A stretch of 60,155 nucleotides of DNA from a virus (taxonomy: Duplodnaviria > Caudoviricetes): positions 1 to 60,155 of the IMG/VR virus record IMGVR_UViG_3300025277_000021; one strand, 5' to 3'. Position numbers and translations under genes: made by a program. The notes beneath the pieces are model-generated. The model saw only the letters and a program-made list of their open reading frames with translations, did no database searches and was not told the DNA's origin. Each line of letters opens with the position of its first letter. Position 1 is the stretch's first letter. Shown here in pieces: positions 25,361 through 54,574 of this stretch.

Positions 25361-25398
25361 AATCATATCAACAACATGTTCACTGAAAGGAACACACG

Positions 25399-26037
25399 AT
25401 GAAACTGCAAGGAACTATGAGCAAGCTGCTTGGCCAGGTATTCGCACAGGTTGACGGCGTTGTCTGGGACTTGATGTCCAATACGACAGGTGTGAAACGT
25501 GACGACGGCATCTATACCCTGGCCGAAGACGGCACTGTCGAACTCAACCCTTTCGATGCAATGTCCATGGCGATCCCGGCCTTCAGCCAGTTGACGCCCG
25601 TCGACCAAGTTAAACGTGGCGACGTCCTGATGAACAACGGCAAGCCGTCTGGCTGGATCGTCGACGTTAAGGCTACCAAAGCCAAGGCCGAGAAACCTGA
25701 AAGTGTATCCCTGCGGGCCTTGTCCTTCAATGGCCACGAAACGCAGTTCCGTCCCAAGGCTGTCAAGATGCTTGGCATGAGCGGTGTGACCGTTGTGCGG
25801 TCTCCCTTGAACTTCGGCAACACCTCGGGCGAGCAGAAGCAGGCCGGTGGCTTCGGGGACATGGCGTCGATGCTTCCGCTGATGATGCTTGCTGACGGCA
25901 AGAAAGGCTCCGGCATCGATACCAAGACCATGATGCTGATGTCCATGATGGGCGGCGGCGGCAATGCCGGTGGCCTGAACCCGATGATGCTCGCGCTCAT
26001 GCTGGGTGACGACGACGAGGGTTTTCCGAAGCGGTAA
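25399..26037 (+). CDS. Hypothetical protein with Met/Gly-rich C-terminus
   Basis: AAAGGA RBS; MLPLMML...MMLMSMMGGGG...NPMMLALM. Confidence 0.75.
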   Translation: MKLQGTMSKLLGQVFAQVDGVVWDLMSNTTGVKRDDGIYTLAEDGTVELNPFDAMSMAIPAFSQLTPVDQVKRGDVLMNNGKPSGWIVDVKATKAKAEKPESVSLRALSFNGHETQFRPKAVKMLGMSGVTVVRSPLNFGNTSGEQKQAGGFGDMASMLPLMMLADGKKGSGIDTKTMMLMSMMGGGGNAGGLNPMMLALMLGDDDEGFPKR

Positions 26038-26086
26038 CACCAGCGGGTCGGTCTGCTCACACTAGCCTGAGTAGACCGGGTGTTAC
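26019..26086 (+). other. Programmed -1 ribosomal frameshift signal
   Basis: In-frame G GGT TTT heptamer (26019-26025), 8-nt spacer, stem GTAACACC/GGTGTTAC enclosing CGGTCTGCTCA/TGAGTAGACCG. Confidence 0.7.
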
Positions 26087-26828
26087 TTGCAAAGACTGTG
26101 GGGGTACTGGCGAAGTCGTAACGGCTAAGCTGTACCCCTCCGGGCACACCGAAGTTCATGAAGAATGCGACACTTGCAACGGCGCTGGAGAGGTCTATCA
26201 AGAACCTCAAATGGGCTGCAACGTTGGTGGTCAAATTCCATGTCCTGACTGTGTAGAACCCTTCAAGCCAGGTAAGGCGTCAGGCGCACAAAACTTGGCG
26301 TATATCCTGGATGGTGAAGACGTCTTTGGGGCCAAAACGTGGGACTACCTCAAAGACCTGTCAAGCAAAACGGCGCCAGGCTTCGATGTTCATGACCTCA
26401 ACTTCCCCAACTATAGTGAGGTTGGCTTGGCTTTGAACAAGACCGACAATTCCGTCCCAACGGTATCGACAATGCTTCCATTGACTTCGTCAGTTGTGGG
26501 CAACTCCTACCGGGACGGGAACCAGCAGTCGGCTTTGCGGAATAAGAACCCGGGGAACCGAGTTCTGATTGTTCCAGAGCCTGCTAACCCGCATGATCCC
26601 TGTGCCCTGGCAGTTGTCGTGGCACGTGGATTTGGTGGAAAGTCGGGCTTTGTCTGGGTTCACGTCGGTTACGTACCGCGGGATCAAGCAAAGAAACTTG
26701 CGGCTGTCTGGCCCAAGTATCGTGGACGTCCTCTGGTCGGCGAAGGTCGATTGACTGGACATCCAGGCCGTGACAAAAACCCTGCGATTGTTGTCGAAGG
26801 GTCATTCAGGAATTATTTCCCTGATTAA
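26025..26828 (+). CDS. DnaJ-type Zn finger plus HIRAN domain (probable -1 frameshift extension of the 25399 gene)
   Basis: Frame open from 26010; CKDCGGTG and CDTCNGAG lie upstream of ATG 26211; HIRAN motif VVGNSYR...EPANPHDPCALAV...VGYVPR. Confidence 0.7.
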   Translation, partial: SEAVTPAGRSAHTSLSRPGVTCKDCGGTGEVVTAKLYPSGHTEVHEECDTCNGAGEVYQEPQMGCNVGGQIPCPDCVEPFKPGKASGAQNLAYILDGEDVFGAKTWDYLKDLSSKTAPGFDVHDLNFPNYSEVGLALNKTDNSVPTVSTMLPLTSSVVGNSYRDGNQQSALRNKNPGNRVLIVPEPANPHDPCALAVVVARGFGGKSGFVWVHVGYVPRDQAKKLAAVWPKYRGRPLVGEGRLTGHPGRDKNPAIVVEGSFRNYFPD

Positions 26829-50511: not shown

Positions 50512-51143
50512 TAGACTTTAACCTCGATTACGTTTACTTGGGGCACCTGGCCCACGTTGAACAAATCCACGGTAACGTCAATATGGTCGTTTGTAAACCT
50601 CACAGGAACATCAAACTCAAAGCCCACGCGCACTTCAGCGTTGTTTGCTGGAGGATTGTTGAAAGTGAGAAGACCAGTCTCTGGGTTTACAGAATAATAA
50701 GCCTGGCTAACTGGGGCCCCGTCCACTTCGACCACAACTGTTCCATTTACCGGCTTTTTAATGGTGCGGGTGTAGGCAGACGGGCCGGAGATATAGGTTT
50801 TCACCAGTTGAAACTGAGTGCGAACCCCGTCGCCGAAGCCAACTCCTTGGTCGCTGCTGGATACTCTCTGTGTAGGAGGACAGGATTTATAATCTGCCCA
50901 GTCTTTCCATCGAAAGCCGTACAGACGCCCTAGACGTGCTTCAAAGAAGGCAAGGACATCATGCAAGTCATCGAGGTTGCGGATGCCCAAGCCAGCGTCG
51001 TACTCTCGACGGCTGTCAGCCCAAACAGAGTTGCGCTCTTCATACCCGGAACGAAGGGTAACCACATCAGTGCGACGCCGTGGGCCCCCTGAGGACCCAC
51101 GGCTTACGGACGTTGGAAACTGGATTTCGTGAAAGTCAGCCAT
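50511..51143 (-). CDS. Distal tail protein (DUF2460, GTA g12-like)
   Basis: FHEIQFP...SGGP.R.T, FFEAR.G.L.GFRWKDW.D, GFEFDVPVRF. Confidence 0.9.
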   Translation of the reverse strand: MADFHEIQFPTSVSRGSSGGPRRRTDVVTLRSGYEERNSVWADSRREYDAGLGIRNLDDLHDVLAFFEARLGRLYGFRWKDWADYKSCPPTQRVSSSDQGVGFGDGVRTQFQLVKTYISGPSAYTRTIKKPVNGTVVVEVDGAPVSQAYYSVNPETGLLTFNNPPANNAEVRVGFEFDVPVRFTNDHIDVTVDLFNVGQVPQVNVIEVKV

Positions 51144-54100
51144 TAGCTATTCCTTTGTCCTCTTGCCAGCATACGCTGGGCTCTTGCCGCCATTTGACCC
51201 TCAGATCGGCGGAAGCTCTCGGCGTCTGGGGTAGTGATGTTGAACACCACGGTACCATTACCATTTGAAGCCTCTTTGCCGGCAGGTGTGACCTGGACAC
51301 GCTCGCCACGAGAGGCTCGGAAGGCAACGACGTTCTTGTCCACGCCACCGGTGCCACCAACCATAAAGTCGGCCCCTTCGTTATGTCCTGGAAGGGCACT
51401 TGCAGCCTTGGCCGCTGAAGCTCCCGGGATAAGCCCGTCCAAAATGCCGCCAAAGAAGTCTTTCAATGGAGCGATAACCATCATTTGCATTCCGATTTGA
51501 GCCAAGTCTTTGATAACCGAAGAGGCGAACTCGCTGAACTTGAAAGTGCCGTTCTCAACAAAGGTATTCAAAGAGCTTTCCATATTATTGAAAACCGCGT
51601 CATTGATGGAGTCAATAAGCTCCATGCGCTTTTCAAGCTGGCTAAGCGCATCAGCTTGAGCCCGGATAAGCTCAACGTCTTTTTGAGCTAGGATGGTGCT
51701 TTCCTGCTGCGCAATCTTTAGGGCGCTCATGAGAAGCTCTTGCTCCCGCATACCCTGAGTATTCCGCATGATATTCTCAAAGCGGGTTTCCAGCTCCTGG
51801 TTGATAAGCTCAATGGTCTTGAGATAGTCTTTGGACTGGCCTGACCGATCGGAGCCCATGAACCGGTTATTCTGGCTTTTGGGAGTAACCGAGACTTGCT
51901 CACCTTTGGACGCCCAGAAAGCAATGAGGTTCTGGTCAATGCCGCCGTTCCCGCCGACTGTGAAAGAGCCGCCCGAGTTGAGGGTCATAAGACCATTTGT
52001 CCCCATCTGGTCTCGCGTAACGCCGGGGCGGTACGAAGCCATAATTGGAGCATTTGTATTACTGGGGGCTTCCATATTGTTGATAATGGAAGCCGCCCCT
52101 GCAGCCCGGATAAGTTGGTCCGCAAACCCTCGCGCTCCCTCTTCAAGAGGAACAAAGTTGATCTTATCCAGTGTTGCCTCAGTTTCAACAGTCGCGCCCG
52201 CAGCGCCCTCAAGGGGAGTGCGGAAACGTTCTGCCTCTGTGGCAAGTTCATTGAGACGCTCGGTATTGGCGCCAAGAGCCTCCATCATTGAGCTTTCCAG
52301 GTCTCGGGCATCTTGCAATGCCTTCAGTAGGTCAGCGGTATCGGAAATCCAGCTGGAGCCACGAACCAAGTTACCCGCCATTTGAGCGGACTCAAGCCCG
52401 GCTTGCAAGGCCCGCAAAGCCTCAACTTTTTCGGGCAAGCTTTGGGCCTCTGCTGCCGCAGCAATCTCAGTGTCCAGCCCACCAATAGCCTCGGCGATGT
52501 TAGCCAATTGCTCTTCGGCTTGCTTTAGCCAGTGCGATGCTTGCTCAGTCGGTGCCTCTGAAAGATCATCGGGCAAAGCGTCAATAGCGACCGCCAGGTC
52601 AGAAACTGCCGCTTCAACTTCAGGTCCGACACCACGAACCCGTTCAACTGCTTTATAGAAGTCTTCAATGGTACCCGTACCATCTTGAACTGCGGAAAGC
52701 AGGTTATACAGGTTTTCAATATCAGCACTGCGGAAAGACCACATGTCTTCGCCGCCATTATCAAAGTCACGGAACCCGCCCATGCTGGCAATCTCGTCCA
52801 TGGCCGCGCGAATGTTATCCATATTGAATGGATTAAAGCCCGTGCCGTTGATCTCGCTTTCCATGCCTTTGATTTCGTCTTGCAGAGCACCAAGCGAGGC
52901 TTGCAGTTCAGCACGAGACTGGCGGAGCATGGCTTCAGTGGTCAGGTTAACAACCCCACCAAGTTCAGCCTGTTCCTGTTTGGTGATTTTGATGGCCTCG
53001 TTATACTTCTGAAGGGCATCAACACCGTCGCCCATGACCTCACGAAGCCGCTCAATCTTATCGGCAGCGGTCTCCGTATTCTGGTAAACAAAGAAGGCAA
53101 CGCCGGCTAGAGCGGCAAGACCGGCAACAATAGGCCCACCCATAAAGCCAATAGCCACCTTTAGCCCAGAGGCTGCCGTGGCCAAAGCTCCCACGCTGGT
53201 GGCCATTCGACCAACTGCAAGAATTTTGCTAGCCGTAAAGCCTACGCCCCAGGCAATGCCCAGGGAGAACAGAAGGTCAGCAAGTGGCTCAATGTTGTCG
53301 GAGATGAGCAAGATGGTATTGGCAACGGCCTCTGAGATGGTCTGAGCTTCTTCGGAAGTCGAGATATACTCGGTAAGCTTGTTCCGGAATACCGTAATCG
53401 ACTGACTGATGGTCGACGAGGTCTGTTCAAACATACCTGCGATCATCGGGTACTGCGACATGATGGCATTGAAGAATTGCTCTGAAGAAACCTCGCCCTC
53501 AATAACCATGCGACGCAAGCGAGCCACAGAACCACCAGCCTCGTCGATGCCTTTTGCCGCAGCCAGGGCAATTGGATAGGCGCCTTCAAGGATGGAGTTA
53601 AATTCTTCAGCCCGCACAATGTCAGTACCAATTGCCTGGGACAACTGAACCAGGGCACCTCGTGCCGTCTGAGCAGAGGAGCCTTGAACAGCCAGGCCCA
53701 TACCAACAGCTTCAACAAACTGAAGGACTTGCTTCTGGTCGACACCCAATTCGTTAGACGCCATCATGCCTTTTTGGAACAGCTGAGCTAGTTCTTCAAT
53801 TGGCGTTCTGGTACGACGGGCGATTGCATAAAGCTCCTCCATAGAGGCAGCTGCTTCCCCGTTAGTGTCGCTCACAATGTTGATGCGGTTGGCAACCACG
53901 GTTGCGCTATCTGCCAAGCGCATCATCTCCATGGCTACAACACTTGCACCGAAGGCGCCAACGTACCGGTTGAGGAGCAAGAACGGCTTGTTGGCGCCCC
54001 GGGCCGAGTCCCCAACACGATCTACCCCTTCGGCTAGATCACGAGAACCACGGGCGGCTCGTTCCACATCAGAGGCATAGCGATTGACCTCTGGAAGCGA

Positions 54101-54574
54101 AACAACTGATGGGACAACCGGCGCAACGCCAGTTGTCTTATCTCGAACGTTATTGTTGGAAATGAAGTCTGTCTGCATGGAGCGAACAGCCCGCAATTTG
54201 CGCATGACATCATCCAGCTCCGCCTCAGCTTGGCGGAACTCCTGGACAGCACTCCATTCAACGTTAGAACCCATCTCACGACGAGCGCTGCGGAGGTTGG
54301 TGCCAATCTGCACAAGCCCGGCGTTGGCTTGAGCAATTGGGGTGCTAAGCCATGACGCTTTGGACCGCGGAGCCGCCAGGGCTCGACGCAGCGACTGGAT
54401 TTGCTCCATTGTGCGGTTAAGTTCCGACGTGGGCGAAATGTTCTTTAGGGAACGGCGAAGGTCGACCAGTTCACTTCCTGCCCGATCAGAAGCCCCTGCG
54501 AGGTCTTCGATGTTCCGCTTAACTTGGCGGGTGCCACGCTCCGTGACGATGATGTCAATACGTTCTGTTGGCAT
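51143..54574 (-). CDS. Tail tape measure protein
   Basis: 1143 aa, helical; QLSQAIG....RAEEFNSILE tape-measure motif; after the tail chaperones. Confidence 0.9.
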   Translation of the reverse strand: MPTERIDIIVTERGTRQVKRNIEDLAGASDRAGSELVDLRRSLKNISPTSELNRTMEQIQSLRRALAAPRSKASWLSTPIAQANAGLVQIGTNLRSARREMGSNVEWSAVQEFRQAEAELDDVMRKLRAVRSMQTDFISNNNVRDKTTGVAPVVPSVVSLPEVNRYASDVERAARGSRDLAEGVDRVGDSARGANKPFLLLNRYVGAFGASVVAMEMMRLADSATVVANRINIVSDTNGEAAASMEELYAIARRTRTPIEELAQLFQKGMMASNELGVDQKQVLQFVEAVGMGLAVQGSSAQTARGALVQLSQAIGTDIVRAEEFNSILEGAYPIALAAAKGIDEAGGSVARLRRMVIEGEVSSEQFFNAIMSQYPMIAGMFEQTSSTISQSITVFRNKLTEYISTSEEAQTISEAVANTILLISDNIEPLADLLFSLGIAWGVGFTASKILAVGRMATSVGALATAASGLKVAIGFMGGPIVAGLAALAGVAFFVYQNTETAADKIERLREVMGDGVDALQKYNEAIKITKQEQAELGGVVNLTTEAMLRQSRAELQASLGALQDEIKGMESEINGTGFNPFNMDNIRAAMDEIASMGGFRDFDNGGEDMWSFRSADIENLYNLLSAVQDGTGTIEDFYKAVERVRGVGPEVEAAVSDLAVAIDALPDDLSEAPTEQASHWLKQAEEQLANIAEAIGGLDTEIAAAAEAQSLPEKVEALRALQAGLESAQMAGNLVRGSSWISDTADLLKALQDARDLESSMMEALGANTERLNELATEAERFRTPLEGAAGATVETEATLDKINFVPLEEGARGFADQLIRAAGAASIINNMEAPSNTNAPIMASYRPGVTRDQMGTNGLMTLNSGGSFTVGGNGGIDQNLIAFWASKGEQVSVTPKSQNNRFMGSDRSGQSKDYLKTIELINQELETRFENIMRNTQGMREQELLMSALKIAQQESTILAQKDVELIRAQADALSQLEKRMELIDSINDAVFNNMESSLNTFVENGTFKFSEFASSVIKDLAQIGMQMMVIAPLKDFFGGILDGLIPGASAAKAASALPGHNEGADFMVGGTGGVDKNVVAFRASRGERVQVTPAGKEASNGNGTVVFNITTPDAESFRRSEGQMAARAQRMLARGQRNS

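Follow-up and report, generated by a model that had tools for sequence, protein, structure and literature searches.

Evidence for a programmed -1 ribosomal frameshift joining a Met/Gly-rich phage protein to a zinc-finger-HIRAN extension

How is a reading frame translated that encodes a recognizable domain but lacks a start codon where its coding begins? The question is raised by the IMG/VR virus record IMGVR_UViG_3300025277_000021. The window, that is, the whole stretch of DNA analysed, is this metagenome-derived record of 60,155 bp, which represents a whole virus (completeness estimate 99%). It contains on the plus strand an open reading frame (ORF) of 212 amino acids (aa), ORF1 (25399..26037, from the ORF list and its translation), and a second frame, -1 relative to ORF1, that is open from 26010 to 26828 and encodes a Cys-rich region and a HIRAN domain. 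A sequence-only reading of this DNA proposed that a programmed -1 frameshift joins the Met/Gly-rich product of ORF1 to this zinc-finger-HIRAN module. Comparisons of frame, heptamer and hairpin among related loci support that proposal, and we consider it highly probable that a classical heptamer-spacer-hairpin programmed -1 ribosomal frameshift yields both a 212-aa and a 476-aa protein.

The product of ORF1 ends in ...GDDDEGFPKR, and its last codons are GAG (26017) GGT TTT CCG AAG CGG TAA (26035-37). The heptamer G_GGT_TTT (26019..26025, plus strand) stands in the X_XXY_YYZ register because the codon phase of ORF1 is GAG GGT TTT, which confirms the heptamer and register given in the sequence-only reading. 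A slip would change the P-site codon from GGT to GGG and leave the A-site codon as TTT. In the minimum-energy fold, a spacer of 5 nucleotides (nt) (26026..26030; about 3-7 nt in relatives) is followed by a two-tier hairpin (26031..26090) with an outer stem (26031-41/26079-90), an inner stem (26049-59/26068-78) and a loop (26060-67). The 0-frame stop TAA (26035..26037) lies three codons past the heptamer, within the 5' arm of the outer stem. The -1 frame is preceded by TGA at 26007-9 and ends at its own stop at 26826-8. The overlap in which the shift must occur is 28 nt, and G_GGT_TTT is inside it. Translation of the -1 frame confirms that it is open from 26010 and has no ATG, GTG or TTG before 26211. 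Its product reads, in order, GFSEAVTPAGR..., CKDCGGTG, CDTCNGAG, M(26211)GC, CPDC and HIRAN. The Cys-rich zinc-finger region (CKDCGGTG, CDTCNGAG and C..CPDC) occupies 26088..26252 and contains ATG 26211, and the HIRAN domain (Pfam PF08797) occupies 26487..26768, all on the plus strand. Post-slip decoding from 26025 (TCC) gives a C-terminal part of 267 aa, and the recomputed fusion of 209 + 267 = 476 aa agrees with the size proposed earlier.

If the frame relation is functional, it should recur in relatives. Loci were collected from IMG/VR, metagenomes and metagenome-assembled genomes by searches with ORF1 and with A1, a 12-sequence ORF1 alignment used as a profile; the window and its nearest named genome, Roseobacter phage RDJL3, were included. 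Of the 96 loci examined, 25 duplicates and 6 loci cut before the stop were removed, leaving 65 distinct complete loci. A hidden Markov model (HMM) was made from 15 -1-frame extensions, and the three forward frames 3' of ORF1 were scanned with it in all 65 loci. The extension is present in 33 of them (15 seeds and 18 non-seeds), in the -1 frame in 33/33 and in no other frame. Of the 33 extension loci, 30 have an in-register X_XXY_YYZ heptamer with 0-4 codons between it and the stop, as does 1 of the 32 others (Fisher p 5.6e-14). With ORF1 clusters at 90% identity counted as lineages, the figures are 26/28 with the extension and 1/24 without it. The background in the bodies of ORF1-family genes is 42 in-register heptamers in 15627 codon positions (0.27%). 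In the 30 canonical loci the heptamer is 3 codons from the stop in 23, 2 in 5, 4 in 1 and 1 in 1.

The conservation of the heptamer in related phages, which the sequence-only reading had proposed to check, is a conservation of pattern, since it is kept in 30/33 loci while the letters vary. The site is GGGTTTT in the window, RDJL3 and locus L093, CCCTTTC (19 loci) or CCCTTTT in most lineages, TTTTTTC in L046 and L071, and CCCTTTA in L058. A -1-frame peptide, [PG]-F-x-x-x-[LV]-T, can be aligned whatever the heptamer, and the ORF1 stops TGA and TAA are read in this frame as CTG and CTA (Leu). Where ORF1 ends in a Pro-Phe tail, the Pro codon is CCT in 26/26 loci with the extension (preceded by C in 24) and CCG, CCA or CCC in 7/7 loci without it (CCT in 0/7); this codon choice appears to provide a natural control. 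The shift window between the upstream -1 stop and the 0-frame stop is just 16-31 nt long in 14 loci, and a canonical heptamer lies inside it in 13 of these, L048 being the exception. Passages of Sharma et al. 2014 (PMC4066793) place H_HH.U_UU.Y among the most efficient heptamers in E. coli, describe "high level frameshifting" at C_CC.U_UU.C, and treat R_RR.U_UU.Y as exceptions made good by the shiftiness of UUY; among tetramers, U_UU.C and U_UU.U are ranked best after A_AA.G.

Several observations concern the distribution of the extension. Loci with and without it occur in the same ORF1 cluster at 70% identity (e.g. L014/L037/L038 and L003/L011/L083), which suggests repeated gain or loss of the extension and its slippery site. 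L079 (stop at 2067) and L078 (stop at 2173) have -1 ORFs of 182 and 155 aa that give no match to the extension HMM. L079 is also the sole extension-less locus with a heptamer, T_TTT_TTC directly before the stop, and may therefore shift into a different domain. A tblastn search of 50,697 phage records with the distant extension of L010 gave no match.

Structure predictions place a putative stimulatory hairpin a few nt downstream of the heptamer, where such structures are expected at about 5-9 nt. The stem-loop described earlier at 26034-26086 is present in the window, with GTAACACC (26034-41) pairing with GGTGTTAC (26079-86) around CGGTCTGCTCA/TGAGTAGACCG, and the minimum-energy fold extends it to 26031-90, its outer stem starting at 26031 and leaving the 5-nt spacer. 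The 122 nt of 26019-26140 have a folding energy of -55.2 kcal/mol (z -3.78), which none of 200 shuffles equals. Against 100 mononucleotide shuffles per locus, the 110 nt past the heptamer have z values of -2.28 or lower in all loci but L023 and L031 (14 of 16). The shared feature is an outer stem with the stop codon in its 5' arm, e.g. GGCTGACCG, and a 3' arm about 58-68 nt on; in relatives this stem encloses a variable inner hairpin. The median duplex energy of the outer-arm partner is -15.5 kcal/mol in extension loci versus -5.65 kcal/mol in the others.

The sequence-only reading had also asked whether the stem is conserved in related phages, and compensatory changes are found in both close and distant sets. 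In 18 distant sites aligned with plain MAFFT, 79.5% of the cells of an 11-bp outer stem are paired, versus 13-38% when the arms are slid by 1-3 columns; 7 of the 11 outer pairs have a compensatory change, and none of 500 shuffles does as well. Among the window, RDJL3, L093 and L048, 96.3% of 81 cells are paired versus 28-42% when slid, and the inner helix is 100% paired with 6/10 pairs changed on both sides, in a count that uses few sequences and a structure derived from the fold of the window itself. Over the hairpin the linker peptide is poorly conserved; the pairing is nevertheless kept. The earlier suggestion that the loop TAGCC pairs with GGCTA at 26123-7 as a pseudoknot is not supported. 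Two contigs of other runs, X8 and X10, have a T>C change at 26126 that disrupts the proposed pairing and is synonymous in the -1 frame, with no loop change listed.

Could the -1 frame be translated from a start of its own? ORF1 and the HIRAN protein might be two ordinary genes, the first ending at TAA and the second, of 205 aa, starting at ATG 26211 (26211..26828, plus strand), with the -1 frame upstream of it untranslated. An annotator would call the locus in this way, RDJL3, Rhizobium phage RHph_TM30 and others are so annotated, and GGAG occurs close to an ATG or GTG in RDJL3 and L093. However, ATG 26211 has no Shine-Dalgarno (SD)-like motif 4-18 nt before it, in agreement with the earlier remark that it lacks a well-spaced ribosome-binding site, and a start there would split the zinc finger and leave two CXXCXGXG motifs untranslated. 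In the distant group the extension profile already matches from 4 nt ahead of the end of the ORF1 stop; the first ATG that recurs in the -1 frame comes about 95 nt later (+95, in 11/33 loci) and is itself the Met of the VGMRF strand within HIRAN. Two separate genes would also leave the heptamer statistics and the exclusive use of the -1 frame unexplained. We regard this arrangement as very unlikely, and the 205-aa protein would hardly be the main product. Independent initiation at a non-canonical codon, or termination-reinitiation after the ORF1 stop, agrees with the presence of CTG 26067 in the -1 frame and with the overlap of stop and -1 frame, as in coupled genes. That CTG was named in the sequence-only reading as a competing start, but it has no SD-like sequence, is not conserved, and is part of a strong hairpin (loop and 3' arm); the peptide GFSEAVTP encoded upstream of it is kept in RDJL3, L093 and L048. 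Distant loci have no start codon at or near the stop; the first -1-frame ATG, GTG or TTG is 11 to 128 nt on (at least 38 nt in 20 of the 28 C-group loci), at no conserved position. Such initiation appears extremely unlikely. To judge from these sequences, the -1 frame encodes a conserved protein from the shift site on, with no initiation signal of its own.

Slippage by RNA polymerase, which would add a base in the T run while ribosomes do not slip, would suit the short T run at the site (T4 in the window and up to T6 in L046 and L071), and its outcome cannot be separated from that of ribosomal slippage by genome comparison alone. Most sites, however, are CCCTTTC and have T3 only, and the homopolymer runs known for transcriptional slippage are far longer than this. 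What is conserved is a two-codon X_XXY_YYZ register with a hairpin at ribosomal spacing, and we consider transcriptional slippage very unlikely. A homopolymer site in a metagenome-derived record might also reflect a one-base deletion in a T5 run, by error or mutation, that split a continuous 476-aa gene. The sequence-only reading had called for read mapping on this point; contigs of other public runs were compared over 25800-26350, leaving out runs X1 and X2 as possible sources of the window, and runs X3 and X4 lack slip-site coverage. X8, assembled from DNA in another study, spans 25979-26241 and has 7 substitutions and 0 gaps there. X10, which comes from a metatranscriptome library and is 1560 nt long, spans 25800-26350 and shows 43 substitutions and in-frame deletions of 6 and 3 nt; its presence in an RNA library is no proof of transcription. 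Its T run has no indel, 26009-26057 is unchanged, and its hairpin substitutions keep the pairing (C-G to U.G at 26058 and G.U to G-C at 26072). The absence of an indel from X10 also speaks against transcriptional slippage, within the limit that contigs drop rare variants. No indel is seen at the site in these assemblies, and with the same frame relation in 33 loci and 28 lineages from many assemblies, and in five cultured phages, an indel is ruled out. An uninterrupted ORF1-then-HIRAN fusion was found in 0 of 10 long matches tested from the best 150 of 544 clusters, and a word-based search for longer proteins, which is weak evidence, returned just one protein with the modules in reverse order. 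An artefact or decaying gene is the least credible of the explanations considered, with hardly any probability left to it.

Some points weigh against a programmed ribosomal frameshift or narrow its reach. The GGAG motifs of RDJL3 and L093 are near ATG or GTG codons inside the zinc-finger region, and some independent initiation of a truncated product is possible in these two. L004 and L062 (T_CCT_TTT) and L048 (G_GAT_TTT), 3/33 loci, lack perfect P-site re-pairing and keep the A-site U_UUU alone; these loci and two Acinetobacter phages would need slippage in the A site only, on U_UUU, or next to the stop. G_GGU_UUU, the heptamer of the window, is outside the top efficiency class for E. coli according to PMC4066793. 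The hairpins are predicted, and the shuffle test of the outer arm gives p<=0.05 in just 12/33 extension loci (1/32 of the others). RNAalifold found no consensus pairs on the plain MAFFT alignment A2 (16 sites) because the arms are misaligned in 4 rows, and explicit pair counts on alignments A3 and A5 were used in its place. Many of the "distinct" loci are closely related, and the extension-bearing clusters number 14 at 70% ORF1 identity. The slip itself is strongly argued for, by support that comes wholly from sequence.

What would the frameshift add to ORF1? The HIRAN domain recognized earlier in the -1 frame is supported by its Pfam match (PF08797, E 4.5e-11, 42.9 bits, above the cut-off of 24.7). 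The extension-family profile matches the PDB sequences of 3k2y (3e-7) and the HLTF HIRAN (1.2e-5). A phmmer search of PDB sequences with the HIRAN part of the window alone gave no match, and distant extensions taken alone are under the cut-off of the HIRAN profile, with E values of 1.8e-4 to 0.026 in 4/5. The zinc finger is confined to the window subgroup, which consists of the window, RDJL3, L093 and L048. The motifs CKDCGGTG and CDTCNGAG, earlier called "DnaJ-type", are present as described, and the name holds as a resemblance only: the match to DnaJ_CXXCXGXG (PF00684; E 3.3e-6, 27.7 bits) is under the cut-off of 32.7. The region has two canonical CXXCXGXG repeats and C..CPDC, versus four repeats, with two zinc centres, in PF00684, and L093 and L048 have two CXXC pairs only. 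The structural model of the extension has a confident zinc-finger hairpin pair (predicted local distance difference test, pLDDT, 77-91 at residues 22-60) and a confident HIRAN core. Its top fold matches are lp_0118 (3k2y), the DNA-bound HLTF HIRAN and DnaJ zinc fingers, and DnaJA2/DnaJ zinc-finger chains superpose on it with a root mean square deviation of 1.7 A over 41 columns. As modelled, the Cys-rich region is a DnaJ-like zinc ribbon and not a member of PF00684.

ORF1 itself has no Pfam or PHROG family match. Its family comprises at least 544 representative clusters (50% identity) at E<=0.001 in a search of 1.84 billion proteins with the A1 profile, and its neighbours in ESM-Atlas are all viral "hypothetical protein" entries. 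The model is beta-rich, with a pLDDT of 62 overall and about 80 for residues 15-135, and the C-terminal part is a Met/Gly-rich low-complexity tail that is not confidently modelled. Residues 62-135 weakly match a barrel like those of SH3, Tudor and EF-P domain I (best Foldseek E 0.013; VIA Z 5.9). No function was drawn from these fold matches, as a Z of 5.9 is below the informative level. A two-copy complex prediction with A1 gave a score of 0.00 for self-association, which counts neither for nor against it; the oligomer with short and fused forms in a fixed ratio, put forward in the sequence-only reading, is conjectural and gains no support here. In one subgroup of the family (e.g. P0071, P0073, P0083, P0092 and P0127), a tail ...PPL(T/Q/R)R(L/T/I).. 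replaces the PF/FF tails. The ORF1 homologue in L016/L043 (the same contig) is broken within its body at about 2770-2860; the conserved part SGVMVLRSL... resumes in the +1 frame, apparently with another break after it. A sequencing error or a decayed copy, unrelated to the conserved recoding site, is the probable cause. The reverse-order protein P0151 (378 aa, from a metagenome) has an N-terminal HIRAN domain and a C-terminal ORF1-like module with a Met-rich tail in a single frame. It joins the two modules without recoding, and they are therefore functionally tied.

The arrangement is also present in cultured phages. A tblastn search with ORF1 gave 20 phage records, and six cultured-phage records, RDJL3 and five others, were examined. 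Five of the six have the arrangement, the two frames being annotated in all as separate hypothetical genes and in none as a join; Vibrio phage phiKT1024 is without the extension. RDJL3 has 74% nucleotide identity to the window and the same arrangement: its ORF1 ends in GGG GGT TTT CAG AAG CGG TAA, and its -1 frame is open and encodes CDTCYGDG before the annotated ATG. The change from CCG in the window to CAG in RDJL3 replaces Pro with Gln in frame 0 and is synonymous (TCC to TCA) in frame -1. Ralstonia phage RP13 has AAG GGT TTC TAA and a HIRAN-like -1 ORF of 144 aa, and Rhizobium phage RHph_TM30 has AGT TTT TTC GAC AAC TAA and a -1 ORF of 143 aa. Acinetobacter phages vB_AbaM_3098 (L097, 2120-3130) and Ab1-TPeters (L098) have CCT TTT TAA and -1 ORFs of 329 and 282 aa. 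The -1 ORF of Ab1-TPeters matches the extension HMM (E 1.4e-5); that of vB_AbaM_3098 misses an E of 0.01, and a VVGMRF motif is present. In these two phages the site is adjacent to the stop, and the long -1 ORF has an extra region before its VGMR(F/Y) HIRAN-like part.

The genes around ORF1 bear out its non-tail location, as the sequence-only reading had claimed: a DUF2800/PD-(D/E)XK nuclease and an Enc34-type single-stranded DNA-binding protein lie upstream, a family-A DNA polymerase lies downstream, and ORF1 has no match to a tail assembly chaperone (TAC) family. The long tail-module ORFs are at 45-55 kb, on the strand opposite to ORF1. One minus-strand ORF, 51143-54574 (1143 aa), has a partial match to phrog_2971 at 53165-53587 (E 6e-7, profile positions 196-340) and is probably tape-measure-like, from its length and its position in the tail region. 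Two long antisense ORFs overlap ORF1, 25363-26040 (-) and 25512-26234 (-), of 225 and 240 aa. RDJL3 has equivalent antisense ORFs and an annotated minus-strand coding sequence of 38 aa over the slip site (L001, 4697-4813). The antisense ORFs look like by-products of composition and not like genes.

The neighbourhood of the ORF1 family in large-phage contigs differs from the replication module of the window. There the gene adjoins an NMNAT-Nudix fusion, NAMPT, adenylosuccinate synthetase and a phrog_2971 protein of about 300 aa with a DVTGSMG motif. These NAD-salvage, adenylosuccinate synthetase and phrog_2971 neighbours are at L005 706-1857, L010 1199-2401, L002 1059-2462, L008 812-2323 and L003 3998-5263, and at L005 3619-4515 and L003 3109-3993.

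What could a virus gain from making two such proteins? Under a programmed frameshift, most ribosomes would end at the ORF1 TAA and produce the 212-aa protein, with its putative SH3/Tudor-like beta barrels and Met/Gly-rich tail. A fraction, with GGT and TTT in their P and A sites, would pause at the hairpin 26031-90, slip back by one base on G_GGT_TTT, and go on in the -1 frame. The 476-aa product would have the shared N-terminal body, the zinc finger and HIRAN. The HIRAN domain of HLTF binds 3'-OH ends of DNA. A likely role of the fusion would be to equip part of the population of an ORF1-based factor in phage DNA replication or repair with a head that binds DNA 3' ends; we infer replication or repair because of the HIRAN domain and because the gene lies between an Enc34-type single-stranded DNA-binding protein and DNA polymerase A. 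A bolder picture, which we hold to be rather doubtful, is that ORF1 is a new modular viral adaptor, built of SH3/Tudor-like barrels with a Met-rich tail, to which recoding adds a sub-stoichiometric HIRAN hook for 3' ends, in the window together with a zinc finger. The ratio of the two forms would then be set by termination versus slippage at the stop-containing hairpin, and nascent 3' ends at phage replication or recombination intermediates would be tethered or protected by the mixed assembly. If this were true, the adaptor would be a recoding-controlled replication accessory factor present in siphoviruses, in T4-like phages and in jumbo phages alike.

Three things appear to be new as a case of recoding, as far as searches show: the gene family, the domain added to it and the hairpin that contains the stop. 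The supplements of PMC4066793 and PRFect might list a related case. Among the papers listed in a literature search, none links HIRAN with frameshifting; the one phage genome paper listed (PMC10927666) has both separately. "HIRAN" is not in the text of PRFect (PMC10885494), whose supplementary tables are where such a case might be listed, and it was not found in the available part of the text of a 2016 recoding review (PMC5009743). Few phage frameshifts are known outside tail and capsid genes, and the locus would add to them a recoding event that is widespread yet unannotated. The extension is carried by roughly half of the ORF1-family members sampled, among them phages that infect Roseobacter, Rhizobium, Acinetobacter or Ralstonia as well as many uncultured large phages. 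Cultured phage-host pairs exist, and the frameshift is therefore directly testable. The occurrence of three different heptamers at one homologous site, together with a stop-enclosing hairpin, would amount to a natural experiment on bacterial -1 sites. The HIRAN ORFs of these genomes are probably mis-annotated, either truncated to an internal ATG or split, and their halves should be joined. The locus also points to an unstudied family of phage proteins that is functionally tied to a DNA-end-binding domain.

Known systems resemble this locus in part. The OrfA-OrfAB frameshift of IS3/IS911 likewise has a heptamer with a structured stimulator a few nt on, a nearby 0-frame stop and a longer fusion with an extra domain. 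Most insertion sequence elements use A_AAA_AAG/A, 72% of heptamers according to a passage of PMC4066793, whereas C_CCU_UUY, G_GGU_UUU and U_UUU_UUC are found here, with a long two-tier hairpin that contains the stop and with no support for a pseudoknot. Like the G/GT tail assembly chaperones, the locus has, towards the 3' end of a short gene, a conserved phage -1 shift that adds a second domain, and its conservation over very divergent phages is the main evidence. Unlike G/GT, ORF1 lies in a replication module (in the window) or beside NAD-salvage genes (in other phages) and not before a tape-measure gene, it matches no TAC family, and the added domain is HIRAN, so that it is not placed among the TACs. 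The extension resembles the HIRAN domain of HLTF/Rad5 in that it matches PF08797 above the cut-off, its profile finds HLTF HIRAN chains, and HIRAN structures are among its top folds; it differs in having no SNF2 helicase or RING ligase and in being joined, apparently by recoding, to a Met/Gly-rich viral protein. In dnaX of E. coli, A_AAA_AAG with an upstream SD-like element and a downstream stem-loop gives a shifted product that is shorter, as the -1 frame runs into a stop immediately. The shift in ORF1 would instead add 267 aa, its heptamer is U-type and not A_AAG, and the two genes have no sequence relation. The likeness to the tau and gamma products of dnaX is in the design: a -1 slip on X_XXY_YYZ with a hairpin, in a replication-associated non-structural gene, that would give two proteins with a common N-terminal body and different C-terminal domains.

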